DNA from: Cyclobacteriaceae bacterium
Lineage (GTDB): Bacteria > Bacteroidota > Bacteroidia > Cytophagales > Cyclobacteriaceae
Length of the DNA: 64,000 nucleotides
Assembly: GCA_028284125.1 (NCBI GenBank)
Contig: JANQSI010000018.1
Coordinates: forward strand, 336,998 to 400,997
Reading direction: 5' to 3'
Positions 39,389 through 57,079 of the stretch are shown one piece after another. Below the pieces are notes generated by a model. It did no database searches. It worked only from the letters and a program-made list of their open reading frames with translations, and had not been told where the DNA came from. The position numbers and the translations under genes were made by a program. Numbering within the stretch: position 1 is the first letter of the stretch; every line of letters begins with the position of its first letter.

Positions 39389-41443
39389 TTATTCGAGTAT
39401 CTTAAACTCAACTCGTCTGTTTTGCGCTCGATTTTCCCTAGTGTCATTTGCTACAAGTGGTTGGCTTTCTCCCATTGCACTCAATTCTAGTCTGTCTTTC
39501 GAGACACCATTTTGGATGAAGTAATTGATCACGGCTTGTGCTCTTCTACCAGAAAGGGATTTATTGTATTGTTCAGGACCAACAGAGTCGGTATGACCTG
39601 AGATTTCGATTCGCTTGATTTGATCATCTTTCAGATACTCGATAAGTCTTTCAAGTACCGGGAAAGAAGCTTCTTTAAGTACCGTTTTATCAAAGTCAAA
39701 GAAAATATTTCGAAGTACAATTTTCTCTCCTTTTTCTATTGGGAAAATAAGCAAGTTCTTTTCTATTGTGTCAGATTCTGTGTACTCTCTGAAGTCAAAA
39801 TCACCGTCTTGGGAAATGTAACCTTCAGCCTCAGCAACTGTCGCATATTGGAAGCCACCTCCTACAGTGAAGTTGAATACACCTGTTTTAGGATGTGCTT
39901 TAACATTGTCTAGGTCCTCTCCCTCTGGAAGTCTTTCAATAATTACACGTGCATTTTCAGCAGGCTCATTGGTTTTAGCATTGATCACTCGGCCTCTCAC
40001 GGTCACAAATACAGGTCGTGGGATCAAATGCTGGACCGAAGAAATGATTGGAGTTTCTTCTATGAATAGATCTTCAACTTTAAAACTGAAAATATCCGTG
40101 TCTTCACCTTTTTCGCCTCGTGTGAAATAAAGGTGCTGTCCACCGTTTGGAATACTGAAGTATTCATCGTCACCATCTTTGTTGATACTTGAACCCATGT
40201 TTTCAGGAGGAGTCCATTTGGTCCATGTATCATCAAGCTTTTGCGTTACGTAAATGTCTGAACCGCCATATCCATTGTACCCGTCAGATGAAAAATAAAG
40301 CGTTGTTCCATCTGCGGCTAGAAATGGAGATTCGTCTTCTCCTGTCGTATTGATTGTGTTTCCAAGGTTTTTCGGAACGGACCACTTTCCATTTCTTTGT
40401 TTGAAACTGATATAAAGGTCTCTTTTTCCATAAGAGTCATCTCTTTCAGCAGACAATAACATGGCTTGACCCTCTGGTACTAAGAAATAGTCTGCATTTG
40501 GAGAGTAGTTGTATTCATCTTCTATTTCTACATCAACTGGATCCGAAAATGTATTACCTTCTCTTGTTGCCATCGAAACTCCAGTGAACATTCGACCATC
40601 TTTTCCATATCTATTTCCAAGAATCAAAACCTCTTTATCTCCAACTTGACTGATGGAACTGATGAAGTTCGGTCCTTTTGTGTTTAGTGGAGCACCCACG
40701 TTGGTCGCTACTTTCCATTCTTCTTTTTCTTCATCCCATTCAGAAACCCAAATGTCTTCAGAGTCATTGGCGCCACCGACATTGTCTGGGTGGTATTGTC
40801 TTGAGAAATACATTTTTTTGCCATCCGGAGAAATGATAGGGCTGTGTTCAGGGTATGTGCTATTAACGTTCGTGCTAAGCTTGTCTGCTTCAATCTCCGT
40901 ATTGATACCTGGCGCTAGGTCGATTAATACATTGATGGGAATATTGGAAGCAGAAATACCGATGGCATCAATTGAATTGTATCCAGGACTGGCTTCTCCA
41001 TCAAGCACTACTTTGATTGCTTGAATTCTATATGAAGTCTCGTCAAAGAATAAATTGAGCAAACGTGCTTCGATTGGTAAATTTCGTGGAGTGAGATCAA
41101 ACAGCTTGTACTCGTTGTAGTCAGTGTCGTATGCATAAACTTCCTTTACCGCTCCTGGATTTTCAGACTCTGCAATTGCAACCTGTTTAGCTCTTAGCGG
41201 ATCTGAGAATGAGACAACAATGAATTCTTCTTTGTTTGTGCGCTTTGGTCGCCAGGCGTTTGGACTTTCTCCACCTCTTGGCAGCACATTTGGTCTATGA
41301 AGTGCCTGAATGGCTGAATATTCATAGGGAGAATATTCTGTAGAGACATCCACAACTTCTGATCCCCAAACAATAGTTTCCTGAGCATAAAGTACACCAG
41401 CGAATGCGAAGCTCAGAATAGTTAGTAATACACTTTTTTTCAT
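39389..41443 (-). CDS. OmpA-family protein with N-terminal jelly-roll-like domain and PD40 repeats
   Basis: Signal peptide (LYA-Q), PD40 repeats (SPIISPDGKKMYFSR, SPFLAADGTTLYFSS), OmpA C-domain (IFFDFDK, GHTDSVG, LSGRRA, NRRVEF). ATG 41443 is preferred. Confidence 0.9.
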   Translation of the reverse strand: MKKSVLLTILSFAFAGVLYAQETIVWGSEVVDVSTEYSPYEYSAIQALHRPNVLPRGGESPNAWRPKRTNKEEFIVVSFSDPLRAKQVAIAESENPGAVKEVYAYDTDYNEYKLFDLTPRNLPIEARLLNLFFDETSYRIQAIKVVLDGEASPGYNSIDAIGISASNIPINVLIDLAPGINTEIEADKLSTNVNSTYPEHSPIISPDGKKMYFSRQYHPDNVGGANDSEDIWVSEWDEEKEEWKVATNVGAPLNTKGPNFISSISQVGDKEVLILGNRYGKDGRMFTGVSMATREGNTFSDPVDVEIEDEYNYSPNADYFLVPEGQAMLLSAERDDSYGKRDLYISFKQRNGKWSVPKNLGNTINTTGEDESPFLAADGTTLYFSSDGYNGYGGSDIYVTQKLDDTWTKWTPPENMGSSINKDGDDEYFSIPNGGQHLYFTRGEKGEDTDIFSFKVEDLFIEETPIISSVQHLIPRPVFVTVRGRVINAKTNEPAENARVIIERLPEGEDLDNVKAHPKTGVFNFTVGGGFQYATVAEAEGYISQDGDFDFREYTESDTIEKNLLIFPIEKGEKIVLRNIFFDFDKTVLKEASFPVLERLIEYLKDDQIKRIEISGHTDSVGPEQYNKSLSGRRAQAVINYFIQNGVSKDRLELSAMGESQPLVANDTRENRAQNRRVEFKILE

Positions 41444-41456
41444 TTGCAATATTTTA

Positions 41457-42146
41457 TTAGCGGCGAATAACTCGTACTTCAACCCTTCTGTTTAATGCTT
41501 TTGCTTCCGGAGTATCATCTCTTGAGAGCGGCTCAGTTCCCCCAAAAGCTCGTGTAAGAATCCTGGCTTTTTTGACCTTTTGGTCTACGAGGTATTCTTT
41601 GACCGCAACCACTCTTGCCTCAGACAATTGCATGTTTGCAGTAGCATTACCTCTAAAATCTGTATGGCCTTCCAGTTGTATTACAATGGCAGGGTTATCA
41701 TTCATCCAGGTGGCTAGCTCGTCCAATTCATTGTATGATTCACTAGAAATAGTGGCTCTTCCTGATGGGAAAATCAAGTTCTCCAGTTTGATCAGTTCTA
41801 CTTCATCCACCGGGAGGTAAAAATCTTCACTTTGTGAGAGATCTGAACCATTACCTGTAATAACGATTTCCTTATCGAATTTTAGGAACCCGGTTTTAGT
41901 TATGGAAATGTTGTAGGTATTTCCCTTCACCAGTGGCATGGAGTAAGTTCCGTCTGCTTGAGTTGCGATCATTCCCATATCATCAAAGTAGGGAAGCTTT
42001 TCATAAAGAATACTTGCTGCTACAACAGATGAATCCTTTGCACTGTAAATCTTCCCGGAAACGCTTATTAATGTATCAGTAGATAGTTGCGCATTTGCTT
42101 GAAGAATAAACAGGATTAATGAGAATCTTAAAGCTGTTTTTGGCAT
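41457..42146 (-). CDS. OmpA-family protein (carboxypeptidase-regulatory-like domain + OmpA C-domain)
   Basis: Signal peptide ending ANA-Q; VSGKIYSAKD; GHTDFRG, LSEARV, NRRVEV. Confidence 0.9.
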   Translation of the reverse strand: MPKTALRFSLILFILQANAQLSTDTLISVSGKIYSAKDSSVVAASILYEKLPYFDDMGMIATQADGTYSMPLVKGNTYNISITKTGFLKFDKEIVITGNGSDLSQSEDFYLPVDEVELIKLENLIFPSGRATISSESYNELDELATWMNDNPAIVIQLEGHTDFRGNATANMQLSEARVVAVKEYLVDQKVKKARILTRAFGGTEPLSRDDTPEAKALNRRVEVRVIRR

Positions 42147-46945: not shown

Positions 46946-49900
46946 TTATTTAAATCCAAACCCGTCATCGTCATCATCGGTTTTTTTGATGGTTTCGAAG
47001 CTTTCATCTTCCAGACTAATGTCGTCAGGAGACACAAGGTTGTAAGGTTCTGTAATCCCAAAGTACTTCAGGCGGAAATCATTTATAAATGACAATGTCT
47101 CATTCGTTTCCCCACCAACAAAGACAACTTCTCCTGGTTTGGCTTTTCCAATGTTTGATCTTGCCTCTATTTCTTCGTTAAACTTTGGATTTGAAGAAAA
47201 CATGACAATCTGATGCTTAGAATAAGCAATGTAATACCAAACACCAGGTGCGGCTTGTAGGAAGAGACTTAGCGCATCTTCTCCGGTCTCGTCTTTTTTA
47301 ATTTCTAAAAATCCGTCAATCTTCGCGTTAAGGTCTTCTCGAACCACATTGGAGATACCGATTTTGGTTGTGTTATGCCAGGCTTTATGTTCTTTGGACC
47401 ATTCCATTTTCATTCCAGAGATGAATAATGGCTTTTCAAATTCTCTTGAAGTGGAAACTAGCGGAGTATAATTCCTAAGACTACTTTCTTCGTAAATACG
47501 AGTTATTGATTCACTTGAAATGTTTGCCAGTTTATAGAGCAACTCAATGGAGATATCATTGGCCGGAGGAGGACCCATACGCTCGATCGTTTCTGTTAAG
47601 TCAAGCGCCATGATATCTAAGAGTATTGGCGGAACTTTGTAGTCCAGCATCATCATCACATCTGCCTGATATTCTTCCGTTTCTGTATTCCCAACTCCCA
47701 GTACAGATGCTTTTATCTGCATTTCTGTTGTGGTTGGTTTGAAGAAATTGACTGGTCCTTCAAAGACAACAGTTTTAGAACTGTCCACATACATCATAGT
47801 GGAACCAGCATATGATTCACCTAGTGACTTTAAATGATTTTCAATTTTGTAGACCTGAGTTGAGTCATCATAAGTTAACGTGCCACTCGCCTTGAAGAAA
47901 TCAAAGTCTGATTCTGTCTGTCGTTTCTGGACGAAAGTTGTATAAAATTCATCACGAATGTTTCTGTGTATTCCAGCGTACGCTGGTCCTCCACTTTCGA
48001 ATTGGGCATTGTCGAAAGGTAGCCTCACTTTCGGATCTTCATCCGACCTTAGGAAACTGACCCACTCTTCATGTCCTTCGAGATCTAATTTGAGATAACC
48101 ATCAAGTTCCAAGGCTTCCTTATATGCGTACATGGAAACACTTCCCTTGTATAAGAATCCTGGAGATATGATTAGATTTTGCTCTGCTTCGACTTCTCCT
48201 CCGGAAACGGTCATGAGCTGTGTTGGAACTACTCCTTTTCTGTCCGGTTCACCAATTGGGACTTCAACCAATTCGAAACTATCGAACCGAATATCGAACG
48301 TATCTAGACCGATGATTTGCTTGTACCAGGCATTTCCTTCGAATTTGTTTCTGGAAATAACTCGTATCGATGCTCTGTCCAAATAGTGATAGCCATTAAG
48401 TGTATCGATGATGATTTCAGCGTTCTCAAATTTTTGTAAAACAGAATTCGCAAGAATGGTTGTTTCGTTATTCTCCGGGATAATTCTAGAATCGGCAACA
48501 GTGATGTAAGGAATTCCCTGGACATTGAGTTTCTGGGAGTTGATATCGTAAACTGCCCGCTCGGCATTAAATGCTAAAGAATCTAGATCTTCCCTCGTTG
48601 TGTAGAAATAGGAATCTTCAATAGGGATTTCTTCTGGCTTGGTCATTATCACCACAGAATCTTCTAAATCCCACACCGCCTCTGTAATGGAAGTTTTCAT
48701 TTGTGCATAAGGAAATGAGATTGCTGCAATTCCTTGCGTTTCGGGACGGACCGTGGCGGTGTTGTTGGTTAGATCAAAGTCCAAACGAATATCATCTCCA
48801 GCCATTGCCGGCTTGTCAACACTGTCCGTAAGCACTTCAAAATCAGCGTGTCTTGCTGCGTATCTGAACTCCTCAAAAGTTAATTCATCAGATATTGCTC
48901 GAGATCCTCTTGTTAACATTGTTCCTCCACCGTAAACTCCTTTAGTAGTGATGTTCGCTTCTCCTTCTAGTTCTGCAGTTGAGTTGTAGAATTTGAACGG
49001 CTCATTGACGGTTCTCAAATACATACTATCCTTTCTTGGAAGCCAGTACATATCATAGGTGCCAAGAATCGCCTCCGGATAGCTGGCAGTGCCAATCGTA
49101 CCTGGACTTATTACTCCGCTTGTTCCGTCCGTCGTGACAGAATCCGGATAGTAAATAAAGTCATCTGAGTAAATCGTTGTGGTTAAAAAATCGATTTGAC
49201 CGAAACCTCGCATTCCTTGATTGGAGAGTCGAATTTCTTCATATGTTTTCGCATCAGTTCCATAAAGGTTATAACCTTCATCTGGGATCTTATGAACGAA
49301 TCCCAGCGATTGATCTTCTTGGGGATGTAACGTTTCTTCGAATGTGGGGAAAATTCCACCCGAGTTAAAAGTTCCTTCGAAGGAAATTGATTCACCGTCC
49401 TCCCGTTCAATGCTATCAATTTCGAATGGAGGAATTATAAAACGAACTGATTTATCGTACGCTCCATCCAGGATTTCTGGGCCATCGAAATAAACGGTCG
49501 CTTCACTGTCAGACACAAAGAATGGATAATTACCATTTTTTTCTTTTCCCGATTTGTTTTCTTTTTTGTCAATATAGAGAGTACCAGAAGTACTTGTCAA
49601 CTGATTTGCAAGCGTTGTTTTCTGAAAGCCAGCTTCTAAGTTCGTTGTATCTCTAAGCGGAATCGTGATTCGCATCGAATCAATTTCAGGCATTGTGAAC
49701 AGAAATTCTTCATAATCAAATTGATGCCCAATACCCTGATAGTCAAAATCTCCCGCATGAAGTACTCCATCAAATTCAAGGTTTCTGTCTCTCAATAACG
49801 TAACTGTGCTATCATACGGTGATGCATATACTTTGAAGTCACTTGTCAGATAGAATCTATGAACGCCATTAATATTCAGTTTTCCACTGTCTAGCTCAAT

Positions 49901-51964
49901 GTAAGCGTTTGCAACATCTGATATTTTCGAAGGAACCATTAGGTTATCAAAGTCTACCTTTTTGGCTGAGGCGTCATAGTAATGAAAAGCTTTCTCATGA
50001 AGTTTTAGCAGACCGGTTTCCGCATCATAGTCAGCGAAACCATATTGACGAAGAATTTTAGCTGCGCCTTTAGCATAATTCTCATCGATTTTATATTCTA
50101 AAGCCAACTCTCCAACATAGAATTCGGTAAGGTTGTACTTTCTGGCATAGAAGACTGCACTACTTATTGGATGGAAATTGAGAAACCGAGCGAGTTTTCT
50201 AAACCTAACTTCATCGAAGAAATCCTCAGATTCAAATGTTGCAGGGACCATGTCCTTTGCATCCATTACATCCATTCCAATGGAATCATTTTCCATGTTC
50301 CACTTAATTAAGTCAAGGTTCATGGTCACATTGAAATAGGAAGAATAATAAGGCGTAATGTTGGAATTTCTTAGTACTGTGAGCGTTTTTGTTGGAAGGT
50401 CATATTTGGCTTTGACGTTTTTATGATAGATAGAATCACTGCCATGAGCAATTGCGATCGAGCCATTTTCCATTGAAACTAGTGAGTCTCCTAGAACAAA
50501 GAATTTGGATTTGAGAACTACCTGGTTCCCTTTTCCGTCCAAAACTGTCAAGGTTCCTTCCTTTTTTGATACGGAACGACCAAATAGATTATTCCCTTGA
50601 ATTTCGATTCCACCTATATATGAGAGCTTCTCATCGGAGAATTTCACTTTCACATCATTTTCGTTAGAAGTGAAAATTGGAAACTTGCTCAGCGTTCTTC
50701 TGGGTCTGTTCGGACTTTTGAAAGTGAAAACTCCTTCCACGGAACCATCAAAGAGAAGATCAAAAGTGATGGAAGCGTTTGGTGTCCAGAAATCGGAACG
50801 ATCTTTTCTTAGGTAGTAATCTCCAAGTTGGACTTCAGCACCACGGAATTTACGGTTCCTTCCGGGCCAGTTTACAGTTCCTTTTGTACCAATGAAGTTC
50901 CGATTCTGCAAAAGAAAAGTCCCTCCAATATTGTTTATAACCATTGAATCATTTCTGGTCACGATCAGCATTTCAGCATCCGCAATTTCTATTACTGGAC
51001 CTTTTTTTTCAGGAGCTAGGTATTTGTTTCTGACATCAGCAAGGTGATCAATAATTGGCGCACCATAAACCGGTCGTTCGGGTGGAGGTGGTTCGTAGGT
51101 TGTTTGTGTGTCGTTTCCGAATTCATCATTACTTCCCCACGGATCATTGCTAGAATCTCCCCACGGATCGTTGTTGTTGTCACCCCACGGGTCGTTGTTG
51201 GTTGCCCACGGATCATTGCTGTTATCCCCCCAGGGATCATTATTGGTCGCCCACGGATCATTGCTATTATCGCCCCATGGGTCATTATTAGTTGCCCACG
51301 GATCGTTGTTGTTATCGTCCCAGGGATCATTATTATTAGCCCACGGATCGGCTAAAGAATCTACCGGTTGGGAATTCAATGCTGCTAATTCCTCATCCGT
51401 GATAAATCCGGAAGTGTCTTCTTCTACATATTCTTCATTGGCGTATGGATCATCTTCAATTTCTATCAGCTCATCCAAAAGTTTAAATGAATAAGAACCA
51501 CCAGGAGCCTGGACAAACAACGTTTTTTCGAGACTTAGATATCGTCTCGCGAAATAAATATTTAGTCCAAAAACAAAATCCTGGTATTCTTTTCTTGGAA
51601 GCGTTTCCAGCACTTGTTCGTTGATGTCTAGGAGACTGCTGAGTTCATCTCGCTGGAGATTTTCTTGGGCAACAGAGTAAGCGAGGTAGCTAAAATAGTG
51701 ATAGAAAAAGGGATAAAACTGATACCCTTTTCTCTGCATCCTCAATGCGATTGTGTGAATTTTATCTTGTTGTGCGGAGGTGAACTTCCCATCCCAGGCG
51801 TTTTGAAAATCAAAACCAATTTTCATGGCAGCTTCTGTTCCAACAGCACGCAATCTGGATATCGCTTGCGCTCTGAATTCATCCTTGTCTTCAGAGAAAC
51901 GCTGAGCCAGTACTTCCGAAAAAGTCAGTAAGACTAGAAATAATATAAGAACAGGCGATCGCAT
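46946..51964 (-). CDS. 1672-aa secreted hypothetical protein, beta-strand-rich, with a DPW-repeat insertion
   Basis: Signal peptide ending VLA-Q; long uninterrupted ORF directly downstream of prmA; no family that I recognise. Confidence 0.85.
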   Translation of the reverse strand: MRSPVLILFLVLLTFSEVLAQRFSEDKDEFRAQAISRLRAVGTEAAMKIGFDFQNAWDGKFTSAQQDKIHTIALRMQRKGYQFYPFFYHYFSYLAYSVAQENLQRDELSSLLDINEQVLETLPRKEYQDFVFGLNIYFARRYLSLEKTLFVQAPGGSYSFKLLDELIEIEDDPYANEEYVEEDTSGFITDEELAALNSQPVDSLADPWANNNDPWDDNNNDPWATNNDPWGDNSNDPWATNNDPWGDNSNDPWATNNDPWGDNNNDPWGDSSNDPWGSNDEFGNDTQTTYEPPPPERPVYGAPIIDHLADVRNKYLAPEKKGPVIEIADAEMLIVTRNDSMVINNIGGTFLLQNRNFIGTKGTVNWPGRNRKFRGAEVQLGDYYLRKDRSDFWTPNASITFDLLFDGSVEGVFTFKSPNRPRRTLSKFPIFTSNENDVKVKFSDEKLSYIGGIEIQGNNLFGRSVSKKEGTLTVLDGKGNQVVLKSKFFVLGDSLVSMENGSIAIAHGSDSIYHKNVKAKYDLPTKTLTVLRNSNITPYYSSYFNVTMNLDLIKWNMENDSIGMDVMDAKDMVPATFESEDFFDEVRFRKLARFLNFHPISSAVFYARKYNLTEFYVGELALEYKIDENYAKGAAKILRQYGFADYDAETGLLKLHEKAFHYYDASAKKVDFDNLMVPSKISDVANAYIELDSGKLNINGVHRFYLTSDFKVYASPYDSTVTLLRDRNLEFDGVLHAGDFDYQGIGHQFDYEEFLFTMPEIDSMRITIPLRDTTNLEAGFQKTTLANQLTSTSGTLYIDKKENKSGKEKNGNYPFFVSDSEATVYFDGPEILDGAYDKSVRFIIPPFEIDSIEREDGESISFEGTFNSGGIFPTFEETLHPQEDQSLGFVHKIPDEGYNLYGTDAKTYEEIRLSNQGMRGFGQIDFLTTTIYSDDFIYYPDSVTTDGTSGVISPGTIGTASYPEAILGTYDMYWLPRKDSMYLRTVNEPFKFYNSTAELEGEANITTKGVYGGGTMLTRGSRAISDELTFEEFRYAARHADFEVLTDSVDKPAMAGDDIRLDFDLTNNTATVRPETQGIAAISFPYAQMKTSITEAVWDLEDSVVIMTKPEEIPIEDSYFYTTREDLDSLAFNAERAVYDINSQKLNVQGIPYITVADSRIIPENNETTILANSVLQKFENAEIIIDTLNGYHYLDRASIRVISRNKFEGNAWYKQIIGLDTFDIRFDSFELVEVPIGEPDRKGVVPTQLMTVSGGEVEAEQNLIISPGFLYKGSVSMYAYKEALELDGYLKLDLEGHEEWVSFLRSDEDPKVRLPFDNAQFESGGPAYAGIHRNIRDEFYTTFVQKRQTESDFDFFKASGTLTYDDSTQVYKIENHLKSLGESYAGSTMMYVDSSKTVVFEGPVNFFKPTTTEMQIKASVLGVGNTETEEYQADVMMMLDYKVPPILLDIMALDLTETIERMGPPPANDISIELLYKLANISSESITRIYEESSLRNYTPLVSTSREFEKPLFISGMKMEWSKEHKAWHNTTKIGISNVVREDLNAKIDGFLEIKKDETGEDALSLFLQAAPGVWYYIAYSKHQIVMFSSNPKFNEEIEARSNIGKAKPGEVVFVGGETNETLSFINDFRLKYFGITEPYNLVSPDDISLEDESFETIKKTDDDDDGFGFK
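51137..51349 (-). repeat. Ten in-frame DPW motifs, mostly in alternating 21/24-nt units
   Basis: DPWANNN DPWDDNNN DPWATNN DPWGDNSN DPWATNN DPWGDNSN DPWATNN DPWGDNNN DPWGDSSN DPWGSN. Synonymous codons vary (GAT/GAC, CCG/CCC/CCA). Confidence 0.95.
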
Positions 51965-54266: not shown

Positions 54267-54731
54267 TTAATTTGTCTGAGTTTCTGTGTTTTGATAATAC
54301 AAGAAGACCCTGATGGGAAAAATTAGGAGCATAAACCCTGGGTGATAGAGTAAGGATATAAGCCGATAAATAGTAGCTCGATATTGGATCAATTCGAATA
54401 AGCTAGCGACAGCACTTGTTACCAAGAGACCAATACCTATCAGAAGAAAAATTTTTGCGATTCTTGAGCTAAGCAGCTCTCTGGCAAAAACGTAGTTGAA
54501 ATAGAATCGAATAAGAAAGGTGAATTTCCCACTGATCCATTCTGGAGAAATCTGATTGAAATGCATGAAGTCTATAACTCGATCGATCTGATTGAGAGAA
54601 TTTTCAAGTAGTGGAAACCTAAAAATTGATTTGAAAAAATCTACAATGAAAAAAGGATAATCACCAAAGTAGGCGAAAACAACAAAACCTAGCCAGAGTA
54701 CTATTAGCCATGTACTAACTGTTTTTTGCAA
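54267..54731 (-). CDS. Exosortase-associated membrane protein
   Basis: Four hydrophobic segments, C-terminal LLYHPGFMLLIFP; start overlaps the exosortase 3' end. Confidence 0.65.
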   Translation of the reverse strand: MQKTVSTWLIVLWLGFVVFAYFGDYPFFIVDFFKSIFRFPLLENSLNQIDRVIDFMHFNQISPEWISGKFTFLIRFYFNYVFARELLSSRIAKIFLLIGIGLLVTSAVASLFELIQYRATIYRLISLLYHPGFMLLIFPIRVFLYYQNTETQTN

Positions 54732-55242
54732 AATGCTTCTTGTTAATGACTTCTATCCACAAGAACCATAGGACGCCAATGATTGCGTAAACAAATAACA
54801 GATAGGTGTACTTATGATTGAATTCAAAAGTGGCGGGACTTTTTAAGTAATTGAACCCGAGGAGATATACTCTTACCACGTTTACGAAAAACAAAATGGA
54901 TAACCCAAGAAAACCATAAACGATCTTATGAATCCATTTACCTGGAGTAATTACTATAAAGCCTATGAACAAAACAAAGAGTTCTAGCCCATTGCAAGGA
55001 TCTCCAATAAGCACGGATTTAGTGTTGGAAACATATAAGTATAGCCCGTCAAAAGAACTACTGGCTCCTAACCAATTAAAAACTCCAGCTGCACTTGCTC
55101 CAACTTTATTTGTAAGCCATGGATTCAGGGATGTGAATGGTAAGATAAATCCCCAATACAGAGCTTTCCACAAGATTATTAAAGACACAGCCCTGATTGC
55201 AAATCGGTACTGAGCCGAGATTTTGATTCGGGGGAACTTCAA
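54715..55242 (-). CDS. Exosortase/archaeosortase-family transpeptidase (short, single-domain)
   Basis: VLIGDP-C-NGLEL (Cys), VNVV-R-VYLL (Arg) and FN-H-KYTY (His) match the family's conserved catalytic residues in a multi-TM protein. Confidence 0.9.
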   Translation of the reverse strand: MKFPRIKISAQYRFAIRAVSLIILWKALYWGFILPFTSLNPWLTNKVGASAAGVFNWLGASSSFDGLYLYVSNTKSVLIGDPCNGLELFVLFIGFIVITPGKWIHKIVYGFLGLSILFFVNVVRVYLLGFNYLKSPATFEFNHKYTYLLFVYAIIGVLWFLWIEVINKKHFAKNS

Positions 55243-55248
55243 TTCGAC

Positions 55249-55437
55249 CTAGCTTCTTTTATGATCCCTGTATTTTTTTATTCCATAACCAACTCCAGCA
55301 GCGGCTAATAAACTTAAGCCGCCATCAATTGGTACTCCAGGAGGAGGTGGGGGAAGACCATCTTGGGCAAATGCTAATGCAGCAAACCTAAGGAGAAAAA
55401 ATAAGGTGAGTGTTAACTTTAAAAATATTGACTGCAT
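55249..55437 (-). CDS. 62-aa micro-protein with a PID-GG C-terminal sorting signal (PID-CTERM-type)
   Basis: Signal peptide (..AALAFA-Q), DGLPPPPPGV linker, PIDGG motif, hydrophobic LSLLAAAGVGYGI, basic KKYRDHKRS; adjacent to the exosortase. Confidence 0.85.
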   Translation of the reverse strand: MQSIFLKLTLTLFFLLRFAALAFAQDGLPPPPPGVPIDGGLSLLAAAGVGYGIKKYRDHKRS

Positions 55438-55438
55438 C

Positions 55439-57079
55439 TTAATTATTTATAATAATCTTTTGGGTATGAATGATCTGGCCATTTTCCATGGTGGCAATGA
55501 AAATTCCAGAGAGGTCATTGATCGGATACCCTATTCTGCCATCCTTTATTTTCCAGGATTTTATGTGTTGTCCATTTAATGAGTGTAGCGAAACAGTTGC
55601 GTCAGGTTCAAGGTCATCAATGTCCTTCAAAAAGAGCCGGTCTTCGCGAACATATAGGATAGGAGAGCGGTCAACTTCTTCAACGTTGAGAGGAAGTTGC
55701 ACCTGAATTTTAATTGCCTCTGAATGCATGGCCGGCATTGAGAACGAAATTTCACTATCTGGATGAAGTACCTCACTTTCTCCCGTAAGAGTATTTGTTA
55801 CTTTAACCGAATACTCAGGGTCAATGTCTTCTACGTTCAAAACACTGATTGTTACTTCTTGATCTTCGGCAAGATTAAAATGGACAGGAATGGAGTACGC
55901 TAAATCATAAGGCAGAGCGATGAACTCATATGCTTTTTCATCATAAGAAATGTAAGGTTTAAGCAAACTTTCGTCTTGTGTGGAAAAAGAATAGGCATCA
56001 CCTAGTTTGTCATATGCTCCAGTGAAGTCATTTCCTACGAGTATTGCGGTATAATTTGTCGTGTCTGTCCCAGCACCAAAGTTCAGCTCAATTTTACCCG
56101 ATGTTGAAGCCTTTCGATAAAATTGAGCATTATCGGTATTGAGATCATCTGGATGAAAATCGATGCTATAGATTCCATCTCCTAGAGATGGGTAGTCAAA
56201 TTGCACAAAAAAGGCTTGTCCAGCAGCAAGTTCCTCTAGCTGTCCCAGCGTTCCGTTAGAAACGATGTAGGCTCCACTGGTCGCATCCCAGACATAAACT
56301 GTCCCAAAAGTATTTGTGATATTTCTTGTTAAGAATGAAAGAACATCCATTGTAGATGTGTAGGGATTGGCAACTAAGAAATGAGAAGATTGATTGCCTC
56401 TGGTTCCACTATTTGAGACTGTGCCTGAAACACTTATGGGTTGTGTGTTTGGTGTTCCAATAAACGTCACTGTACCAGGTGAACTTGCAGCGTATCCAGT
56501 TCCAGGAGTGATAGGTGCACTGGCACTTGCGAGATCCCATGTGCCATATCCACTAGTTGAAACTTCGTTATAAATAAACTCGGAACCTGTATAGGTGGCA
56601 TCAGAAACAGGCGAGCCAATCAGACTTGAACCTGAGGATTGGCCTTCCACAGCAAATTGAATGTTTCCGTCATTATCATCAAAATGCATTGTAGTAAAAG
56701 TATTATCCACCAGAAGTTTACCACCGGGCTGAACATCAATTTGAATGAAATCAGCAGCGGCTTCAAATGTGACGACATTTCCGACTTGCAATAAGCCTCC
56801 CGATTCGATGACAATTTTTGCACCGGATTCGATTTCGATTGTACCTGAACACAAAACTGCTCCTCCGCTGGTAATAGTTAGCGTATCGTTTGCGGAGATG
56901 GTAGTTACTCCAATAATCACTGGTTCTTGGCTACTTATTGTCTCAGTTCCGAAAGTGCGTCCTCCAAACCCTGGAAGCGTGATTTGTGCTTCCACCAAAA
57001 AGGGTAGGCCAATTATTAAACAAGCAATTTTTTTGAAAAACTTGAATCGATTCATATGTCGCATTTTGAAATCCGACAC
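55439..57079 (-). CDS. Secreted protein with a type IX secretion (type A) C-terminal sorting domain
   Basis: Signal peptide (..FLVEA-Q); LVANPY...VYVWDA...GQAFFV module common in T9SS cargo; C-terminal VSLHSLNGQHI...LSGIFIATM...TQKIIINN. The real start may be ATG 57064 or 57055. Confidence 0.8.
   Translation of the reverse strand: MSDFKMRHMNRFKFFKKIACLIIGLPFLVEAQITLPGFGGRTFGTETISSQEPVIIGVTTISANDTLTITSGGAVLCSGTIEIESGAKIVIESGGLLQVGNVVTFEAAADFIQIDVQPGGKLLVDNTFTTMHFDDNDGNIQFAVEGQSSGSSLIGSPVSDATYTGSEFIYNEVSTSGYGTWDLASASAPITPGTGYAASSPGTVTFIGTPNTQPISVSGTVSNSGTRGNQSSHFLVANPYTSTMDVLSFLTRNITNTFGTVYVWDATSGAYIVSNGTLGQLEELAAGQAFFVQFDYPSLGDGIYSIDFHPDDLNTDNAQFYRKASTSGKIELNFGAGTDTTNYTAILVGNDFTGAYDKLGDAYSFSTQDESLLKPYISYDEKAYEFIALPYDLAYSIPVHFNLAEDQEVTISVLNVEDIDPEYSVKVTNTLTGESEVLHPDSEISFSMPAMHSEAIKIQVQLPLNVEEVDRSPILYVREDRLFLKDIDDLEPDATVSLHSLNGQHIKSWKIKDGRIGYPINDLSGIFIATMENGQIIHTQKIIINN

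Follow-up and report, generated by a model that had tools for sequence, protein, structure and literature searches.

The DNA analysed here, referred to as the window, is a stretch of 64,000 nucleotides (nt) from a Cyclobacteriaceae bacterium (contig JANQSI010000018.1), and the subject of this work is a very small open reading frame (ORF) at 55249..55437 on its reverse strand, called the mini from now on, which starts with ATG and encodes 62 residues (MQSIFLKLTLTLFFLLRFAALAFAQDGLPPPPPGVPIDGGLSLLAAAGVGYGIKKYRDHKRS). The mini belongs to a tightly packed four-gene unit, made of a surface protein exported by a type IX secretion system (T9SS), the mini itself, an exosortase and a small membrane protein. 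Its ATG lies 1 nt after the TAA stop of the upstream gene and is the first start codon of a stop-to-stop frame that opens just 3 codons upstream, and its own stop is followed after 6 nt by the first start codon of the exosortase gene. [quoted passage not shown] Residues 1 to 24 (MQSIFLKLTLTLFFLLRFAALAFA; 55366..55437, reverse strand) are predicted to be a Sec signal peptide cut by signal peptidase I (SPI) between Ala24 and Gln25: the n, h and c regions and an AFA|Q site can be recognized by eye, the Arg at position 17 being slightly atypical within the hydrophobic stretch, and the site is conserved in the family described below. Residues 25 to 35 (QDGLPPPPPGV; 55333..55365, reverse strand) form a linker devoid of Lys and Arg, whose 11 residues equal the family median. 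Finally, residues 36 to 62 plus the stop (55249..55332, reverse strand) constitute a PID-CTERM sorting signal, which occupies the extreme C-terminus and is composed of PIDGG, LSLLAAAGVGYGI and the tail KKYRDHKRS, directly followed by the stop; the hydrophobic stretch after PIDGG comprises about 15–17 residues.

The assignment of this signal relies on the NCBIfam model NF046080 (PID_CTERM), on the invariant positions of a family alignment (A3) and on a codon-position test. Residues 35 to 58 match positions 1–24 of the 25 in NF046080 with 50.2 bits (E 1.5e-13), that is, about twice the curated cutoff of 26 bits, and a match to the Pfam family PF28310 is precomputed for the mini in the protein collection, so that by the curated cutoff the mini is a PID-CTERM protein. 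The initial annotation, which was unaware of the curated family and exosortase (NF046080, NF046081, PF28310) and of the conserved pairing with T9SS cargo, had proposed that the ORF encodes only a signal peptide plus a sorting signal, with no passenger domain; both the sequence and the model score bear out the former, and the latter holds across all family members inspected. The mature product of about 11–14 residues was also read correctly, in as far as the predicted cleavage sites are those used. Residues 25–35 would then be the sole part left outside the membrane, and Gln25 is predicted to cyclise to pyroglutamate. The mini is an ordinary member of a curated, experimentally untouched family. 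No other PID-CTERM ORF was found within the 64-kb window, the window as a whole gave no match to Rfam families, and a scan for sigma-70 promoters and terminators returned counts equal to those of shuffled sequences, being uninformative on the limits of the operon.

The absence of cargo is shared by the whole family as far as it was inspected. A word-indexed search of the protein collection with the mini returned 302 homologues, and the best 120 of them were all 40–98 residues long, all carrying a precomputed PF28310 match. To avoid a bias toward short proteins, a 31-column profile of the sorting domain alone was also run on 1.84 billion cluster representatives, yielding 2,423 of them at E<=1e-3 (237 at E<=1e-10); the best 150 of the 2,423 measured 42–125 residues, and the domain was C-terminal in every one. 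No passenger domain was seen among the best 120, among the best 150 or in the ORFs of 160 genomic loci. In all, about 350 members were inspected, against 2,423 matches, and every one had 38–130 residues. To consist of a signal peptide and a sorting signal only is, in consequence, the defining property of a large curated family and not a quirk of one genome, a small size that the curators of the Pfam and NCBIfam entries may already have recorded.

Evidence for translation came from 117 distinct genomic DNA copies of the domain, in which the mean pairwise divergence at codon positions 1, 2 and 3 was 0.27, 0.18 and 0.65, respectively, as expected for a translated, constrained gene. It is practically certain that the mini is a genuine, separately translated, cargo-less gene. 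The contrary view would make it a chance ORF, the end of the upstream gene thrown out of frame or a leader that stalls at poly-proline and regulates the exosortase, and it could invoke that the mini is very short, that only 1 nt and 6 nt separate it from its upstream and downstream neighbors, respectively, and that such ORFs are sometimes skipped by gene callers. PPPPP is, in addition, a ribosome-stalling sequence dependent on EF-P, which counts in favor of the leader. However, the score of the hidden Markov model (HMM) doubles the curated cutoff, thousands of homologues display the identical three-part layout, and divergence at the third codon position contrasts with the 0.18–0.27 found at the other two. 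Furthermore, poly-proline is lacking in most members of the family, and an exosortase gene comes next only after a minority of minis. A frameshifted remnant, which the initial annotation had named as the outcome that would overturn its proposal, fails because the upstream protein is complete with its own T9SS C-terminal domain (CTD) and the mini begins with a start codon and a signal peptide that belong to it alone. These three possibilities are refuted for practical purposes, and the chance that one of them is right is minute. A fusion of cargo and mini by readthrough or frameshifting was ruled out as well, since the relative frame of both genes differs among loci and each mini keeps its start and its signal peptide.

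Comparison of the members revealed which parts of the mini are conserved. In 108 of 123, a small residue followed by Gln (x-A|Q) ends the N-terminal hydrophobic stretch at the same place as A24|Q25, and most members lacking it are 5'-truncated gene calls. The SPI site indicated earlier fits this pattern, and cleavage at A24|Q25 is very likely on the strength of these sequences. The expected conversion of the N-terminal Gln fits, in turn, the published "Q-rule" of Bacteroidota SPI substrates, whose exposed Gln is turned into pyroglutamate by glutaminyl cyclase (PMC5837995, PMC10653852). The linker between this Gln and the Pro of P-I-D ranges from 8 to 40 residues (median 11) and falls between 8 and 15 in 104 of 108 members; it is composed of Pro (23%), Asp (21%) and Gly (14%), with zero Lys and practically zero Arg. 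What is common to the family is, hence, an acidic, Lys-free stub rich in Pro, Asp and Gly. The rigid penta-proline core that the initial annotation had stressed is not what the family conserves: it is kept in the nearest clade (loci L001–L004; QAAAPPPPPS..., QAPPPPPPTPPGV and QAPPPPPPPV, the last one in a "VPLSDG" variant) and in a few other members, most linkers being mixtures of Asp, Pro and Gly, such as QLGDPGDDPDA. The sorting signal, on the other hand, contains a near-invariant block, PIDGG-x-S-L-L-x-AAGVGYGIKK-x-RD, with invariant P, D, G, G, L, A, G, Y and K (alignment A3).

Some side observations concern the motif and the number of minis per locus. Variants with the same architecture and a T9SS cargo neighbor carry "VPLSDG" (QPLPPAPAPLPVPLSDG..., QAPPPPPPPVPLSDG...), "PIGGG" or "PIDDG" in place of PIDGG; they are located at L029 9744-9926, L030 2496-2678, L111 4673-4897 and L036 6258-6449, get low scores or none from the PID-CTERM model, and could represent unmodelled sister signals. 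Locus L136 (1555-3459) has three tandem minis before the exosortase, two of them with Asn/Gly-rich linkers of 30–45 residues; L090 (7085-11073) has three, two nearly identical, each behind its own cargo gene; and in L034 (9536-9921) two minis are divergent from the exosortase. The cassette is also present on contigs (L003/L028, L004/L030, L029, L031, L154, L167) that are labelled Halioglobus, Roseobacteraceae, Rickettsiales, Rhizobium or Bosea in records of metagenome-assembled genomes, and these labels probably reflect binning contamination and not occurrence in Proteobacteria.

The gene that starts 6 nt downstream of the mini (54715..55242, reverse strand) encodes a protein of 175 residues with an intact Cys/Arg/His set, in agreement with the exosortase that had been expected nearby, and provides a putative cognate enzyme in the same genome. 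It passes the superfamily models TIGR04178 (47.6 bits, cutoff 23) and PF09721 (42.8 bits, cutoff 25.7). In an alignment of the window enzyme and 11 relatives (A1), Cys83, Arg124 and His143 are invariant in the 12 sequences; in exosortases and archaeosortases, these residues are regarded as the catalytic triad (Haft 2023 preprint). Its best match is NF046081 (exosortase X, XrtX), which outscores XrtH, XrtF and XrtY by some 100 bits, the next-best matches including TIGR04128. The enzyme is named XrtX-like here because its score, 150.1 bits, and those of its closest relatives (150.3 in L001, 168.1 in L004 and 167.8 in L005) remain under the NF046081 cutoff of 170, which L006, L010, L015 and L018 pass; its sequence places it in a divergent clade that has an extra membrane protein. 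The latter (154 residues, multi-pass; 54267..54731, reverse strand) is the fourth gene of the cassette, with 17 nt shared between it and the exosortase gene. It matched no family in Pfam or NCBIfam, the XrtF-associated one included, and homologues of it were seen exclusively right after the exosortase in L001–L003 and L026–L028, the Marinoscillum-type clade. Being without a family and confined to the nearest clade, it was discarded as a general component of the system. Regarding structure, a search for solved structures related to the exosortase found none, leaving no structural mechanism to borrow.

The connection between minis and XrtX was evaluated in both directions. Loci were fetched around XrtX homologues in reference genomes and minis were located in them by the domain HMM: a mini ORF of 48–99 residues from the first Met was present within 10 kb in 30 of 80 loci, mostly immediately upstream, ending 20–400 nt before the exosortase start. 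Conversely, among 83 minis sampled by their own sequence (80 loci, mostly from Chitinophagaceae), 11 had XrtX within 6 kb, and in 9 of these it was directly downstream. As the expectation for two unlinked genes is estimated at well under 1%, the enrichment in both directions provides good support for a functional link, and cleavage of the mini by the exosortase appears likely from the sequences.

The gene preceding the mini (55439..57079, reverse strand) encodes a secreted, all-beta surface protein of 546 residues, with a signal peptide ending in ...VEA|Q and a C-terminal sorting domain of the T9SS type, as judged from the ORF, the TIGR04183 model and an AlphaFold 2 model. The last 80 residues or so score 22.7 bits with TIGR04183, a borderline value for a cutoff of 23, and the protein gave no match in the local copy of Pfam. 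The structural model (pLDDT 71) is all-beta and multi-domain; its CTD superposes on the T9SS CTD of a translocon structure (8glk_D; TMt 0.75, prob 1.00) and on that of RgpB, and the rest resembles the beta-sandwich arrays of adhesins or S-layer proteins. A word-indexed search with this cargo alone found only itself, and its homologues in the protein collection were retrieved with a profile of the homologues derived from the loci. Homologues of the cargo pass the TIGR04183 cutoff, and some are annotated as "T9SS sorting signal type C". In the XrtX-centred loci, the gene upstream of the mini mostly encodes a large protein (270–2,500 residues) ending in a T9SS-type tail, and the NCBIfam T9SS cutoff was passed by three of the four tested. 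An iterated search with the CTD removed showed that the cargo proteins are homologous over a core of about 400 residues, which immediately precedes the CTD and follows variable N-terminal extensions. No Pfam or NCBIfam model matched the core, in which alignment A4 displays the conserved motifs G-Y-x-x-x-S-S-P-V, G-x-H-L-x-G-N-P-Y-P-x-x-I and Q-A/G-F-F-V. Transfer of the peptide to a conserved Lys within the cargo was judged unlikely, given that the core alignment contains no invariant Lys and that the N-terminus of the cargo is itself predicted to be pyroglutamate.

In the XrtX-centred loci, 25 of 26 non-redundant proteins of this core family are followed within 700 nt by a PID-CTERM ORF. Since these loci had been chosen by XrtX, two checks independent of that choice were made. 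In the first, cargo homologues were found without reference to mini or XrtX, and a mini came after four of the five: behind P0263 and P0265 it was a called PF28310 gene, behind P0281 the "PIGGG" variant and behind P0266, from Marinoscillum furvescens, an uncalled PID-CTERM ORF of 60 residues (L108, 5965-6147). This uncalled ORF accounts for the seemingly missing mini of M. furvescens, and minis are probably under-annotated in assemblies. In the second, an ORF ending in a T9SS CTD was found directly before 40 of the 83 minis, against a background of 4.4% among the other long ORFs of the same 80 loci (binomial P ~5e-32). The spacing between cargo and mini is usually 0–60 nt, and several pairs can occur per genome. 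This gene pairing indicates that the mini is probably tied in function to its T9SS neighbor. The statistical coupling of the two genes is new as far as the searchable literature shows.

Minis appear in a second context too. Of the 83 minis, 17 open a locus for Wza-Wzc export and glycosyltransferases, which includes an UpxY/NusG-like gene and an amidotransferase of the asparagine-synthase type. These minis make up a subfamily of Chitinophagaceae with an almost invariant linker, Q[LI]GDPG[DE]DPDA. The loci are L122, L128, L131-L133, L146, L151, L153, L158, L177, L178, L180, L184 and L187, to which L023, L024 and L107 can be added.

All these observations could be integrated in a model, which we consider somewhat more probable than not, in which the mini is a cargo-less substrate of the adjacent XrtX-like exosortase, and the short pyroglutamyl peptide is passed to an acceptor, either lipid or glycan, and acts in concert with the presumably co-transcribed T9SS cargo. 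According to the sequence and to family conservation, the mini would be exported by Sec and then cut by SPI at A24|Q25, and, following the Q-rule, Gln25 would become pyroglutamate. The product held in the inner membrane would expose a stub of 11 residues to the periplasm, span the membrane by one helix and end in a basic tail on the cytoplasmic side. By homology to archaeosortase A (ArtA) and exosortases, Cys83 of the exosortase would attack at or next to P-I-D, so that the helix and tail would stay in the membrane and pyroglutamyl-DGLPPPPPGV, ending in P, PI or PID, would be held as an acyl-enzyme. An envelope acceptor bearing an amine, for instance a lipid of the phosphatidylethanolamine type, may subsequently take the peptide. 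Lastly, the near-obligate pairing suggests that the resulting acidic, Pro-rich conjugate may act with the upstream T9SS cargo, for example as a surface structure that retains or presents it. A formal precedent for this last step is provided by type B T9SS cargo, which has a neighboring gene for a PorP/SprF-like anchor (sprB/sprF; PMC9143113). A phenotypic hint for it comes from Flavobacterium johnsoniae, where deletion of xrtF or its partner equals that of porU, porV or porZ in colonisation, biofilm and zorb defects (PMC10936215).

With respect to the acceptor, the initial annotation had described the product as a membrane-anchored lipopeptide, which is over-specific: it follows from the analogy to ArtA and rhombosortase, and the gene context points at least equally to a glycan. 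For ArtA, the proposed acceptor amine is that of archaetidylethanolamine (PMC7157517), and for rhombosortase a moiety containing glycerophosphoethanolamine has been proposed (PMC7468200; Haft 2023 preprint). Veith et al., in turn, described T9SS cargo that forms an amide with the seryl or glycyl group of a sugar, and the enzymes making that sugar are related to proteins of PEP-CTERM loci, namely VimA/FemAB-like proteins and an asparagine-synthase-like amidotransferase (PMC7468200). Taking into account this linkage and the exopolysaccharide-locus context, an amino-acid-modified sugar of a surface glycan is an equally plausible acceptor. Each of the two, lipid and glycan, can be named only tentatively, and neither reaches an even chance.

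Another outcome of the reaction can be envisaged, that is, that the exosortase is a plain endopeptidase and the pyroglutamyl-capped, Pro-rich peptide is set free in the periplasm or the medium as a soluble signal or effector. One-step transpeptidation is undemonstrated in any exosortase or archaeosortase (Haft 2023 preprint), and the pyroglutamyl N-terminus and the Pro-rich core would presumably give such a peptide resistance to proteases. However, the related systems in which this has been tested, ArtA and rhombosortase, end in a covalent anchor, the linkers are too variable between close paralogues for a receptor–ligand pair, and no conserved receptor or transporter gene was found nearby in the loci inspected. 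Release of a free peptide is thus quite improbable.

Several facts weigh against the proposal that the mini is a conjugated substrate of XrtX working with T9SS cargo. The mini–XrtX synteny is not strict, for about half of the XrtX loci have no mini within 10 kb, bona fide XrtX genes of M. furvescens and several Cyclobacteriaceae (about 190 bits) have none nearby, and most minis are not beside XrtX; for this reason, the assignment of enzyme and substrate rests on enrichment, and the window enzyme itself is below the exosortase X cutoff. The link to T9SS is not universal either, as minis of the subfamily in the Wza-Wzc context are not preceded by T9SS cargo. The cleavage and its site, transpeptidation and the nature of the acceptor are predictions. 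No paper with experimental work on PID-CTERM or exosortase X was found in the searchable literature. The window comes from a single coral-metagenome assembly; among sequencing runs, a single coral-metagenome DNA run contains the locus, and neither an RNA run carrying it nor proteomic data for the organism were found. Finally, the most conserved part of the mini is precisely the piece to be discarded, which fits recognition by a dedicated enzyme and, equally, a function of the helix.

This last point leads to an alternative in which function would lie in the membrane segment, be it that of the uncleaved mini or the remnant of helix plus tail, acting as a small single-pass subunit, a regulator or a processing reporter of the exosortase or the T9SS. 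Conservation is indeed concentrated in the PIDGG block, which contains small-xxx-small packing motifs, the linker is variable and of low complexity, and many minis lie far from any exosortase. There is a precedent as well, for the LPXTG remnant left by sortase A ("C-pep") is described as being sensed by a two-component kinase in Streptococcus gordonii, according to a work cited in PMC11326707. Nevertheless, the conserved block is the exact tripartite signal of exosortase substrates and is strongly linked to an exosortase gene, and, if the stub were irrelevant, a conserved signal peptide with a Q-rule site and an acidic linker without Lys or Arg, kept at 8–15 residues in nearly all members, would be unexpected. 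We consider a function of the membrane piece unlikely, albeit worth keeping in mind.

The pairing with cargo admits a further explanation, a split anchor, in which XrtX would lipidate the C-terminus of the stub and PorU, after removal of the CTD, would join the cargo to the N-terminal amine of the same stub. Such an arrangement would explain the one-to-one pairing, which is near-obligate, with a spacing of usually 0–60 nt and several pairs per genome; PorU naturally transfers to the alpha-amine of a sugar-borne seryl or glycyl group, making a peptide-type amine chemically plausible (PMC7468200), and type B cargo with its adjacent PorP-like anchor offers an analogy. Against it, about 88% of minis expose Gln at +1, and Bacteroidota cyclise this residue to pyroglutamate, blocking the amine. 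In addition, the linker has no Lys, an inner-membrane lipid would need a route to the outer-membrane surface, and the Wza-context subfamily lacks a cargo partner. We therefore regard the split anchor as having little likelihood. A related and broader idea, still doubtful in our opinion, is that PID-CTERM minis and XrtX are a second, hitherto unrecognised arm of type IX display with a split sorting signal, each adhesin-like cargo of the family being tethered, covalently or specifically, via its own short peptide after XrtX has conjugated it to a lipid or glycan, and the anchor being encoded in a separate gene. If true, it would explain the retention of type A-like cargo in Cytophagales, Chitinophagales and Flavobacteriales.

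The preferred model, a conjugated mini, can be compared with known systems. The nearest is PID-CTERM/exosortase X itself, with the same motif, helix and basic tail at the extreme C-terminus and a homologue with XrtX as its best match next door; the differences are a score of 150 for the window enzyme against the cutoff of 170, as in its Marinoscillum-type relatives, and the additional clade-specific membrane protein. The PEP-CTERM/exosortase systems (XrtA, EpsH) share the enzyme superfamily, a tripartite signal abutting the helix, a signal peptide and the association with exopolysaccharide loci. However, the PEP-CTERM tag is found on real proteins, which are numerous in a genome and show no homology beyond the tag, whereas PID-CTERM tags a stub of about 11 residues only and, unlike PEP-CTERM, has a T9SS cargo gene as its commonest neighbor. 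PGF-CTERM/archaeosortase A and GlyGly-CTERM/rhombosortase serve as the template, in which an intramembrane enzyme cuts the helix off and the C-terminus thereby created becomes attached to an ethanolamine-type lipid; their substrates (S-layer glycoprotein, VesB) are large, in contrast to the mini, rhombosortase is an unrelated serine protease, and lipidation has been shown for no bacterial exosortase. XrtF from F. johnsoniae is, like the window enzyme, a small Bacteroidota-specific exosortase beside a small membrane protein, but no substrate of it is known (PMC10936215) and the membrane protein of the window falls outside the XrtF-associated family. As in the window pair, the gene for type B T9SS cargo directly precedes a small cognate gene, which is needed to hold the cargo at the surface (PMC9143113); that partner, though, is a beta-barrel of the outer membrane to which the retained CTD is bound non-covalently, while minis are exosortase substrates of 60–80 residues and the CTD of their cargo is type A-like or C-like.

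The initial annotation had also spoken of a RiPP-like logic, in reference to ribosomally synthesized and post-translationally modified peptides (RiPPs). The analogy is fair, as in both cases a precursor loses its flanks and a short core with terminal modifications survives, yet classification as a RiPP does not hold: the four-gene cassette contains no RiPP-type enzyme, neither a leader-guided tailoring enzyme nor a RiPP recognition element, the core is variable and low in complexity, and processing would be performed by the general secretion pathway and a sorting enzyme.

The interest of these findings goes beyond the window. Exosortases are widespread, yet there is no bacterial exosortase with a defined product or acceptor, and a tag attached to an 11-residue, pyroglutamyl and Pro-rich stub would be the simplest handle for finding one by mass spectrometry, because the predicted peptide is short, protease-resistant and predictable. 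The same cassette is present in cultured relatives, such as Marinoscillum luteum, M. furvescens, Pontibacter, Adhaeribacter and Rufibacter. The coupling of minis and cargo joins two surface-attachment systems of Bacteroidota that had so far been linked only by the F. johnsoniae mutant phenotype, and the family-wide lack of cargo, together with the strong coupling to T9SS surface proteins, makes minis a good experimental target. As a family of "protein-sorting domains" that sort no protein, they are treated poorly by annotation pipelines and gene callers, which sometimes miss them.

Some other genes of the window deserve mention. A protein of 697 residues (39389-41482, reverse strand) has PD40/WD40-like beta-propeller repeats and a C-terminal OmpA domain, a make-up like that of the T9SS component PorE, which suggests that the organism has a T9SS, and a second OmpA-domain protein is found at 41457-42146. 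Closer to the cassette, a secreted protein of 1,672 residues (46946-51964, reverse strand) with a signal peptide ending in ...VLA|Q and no Pfam family contains about 9 tandem copies of a short Asn/Asp-rich unit of the type NNDPWG/DPWATNN, the repeats lying at 51136-51350 with DNA periods of 24 and 45.

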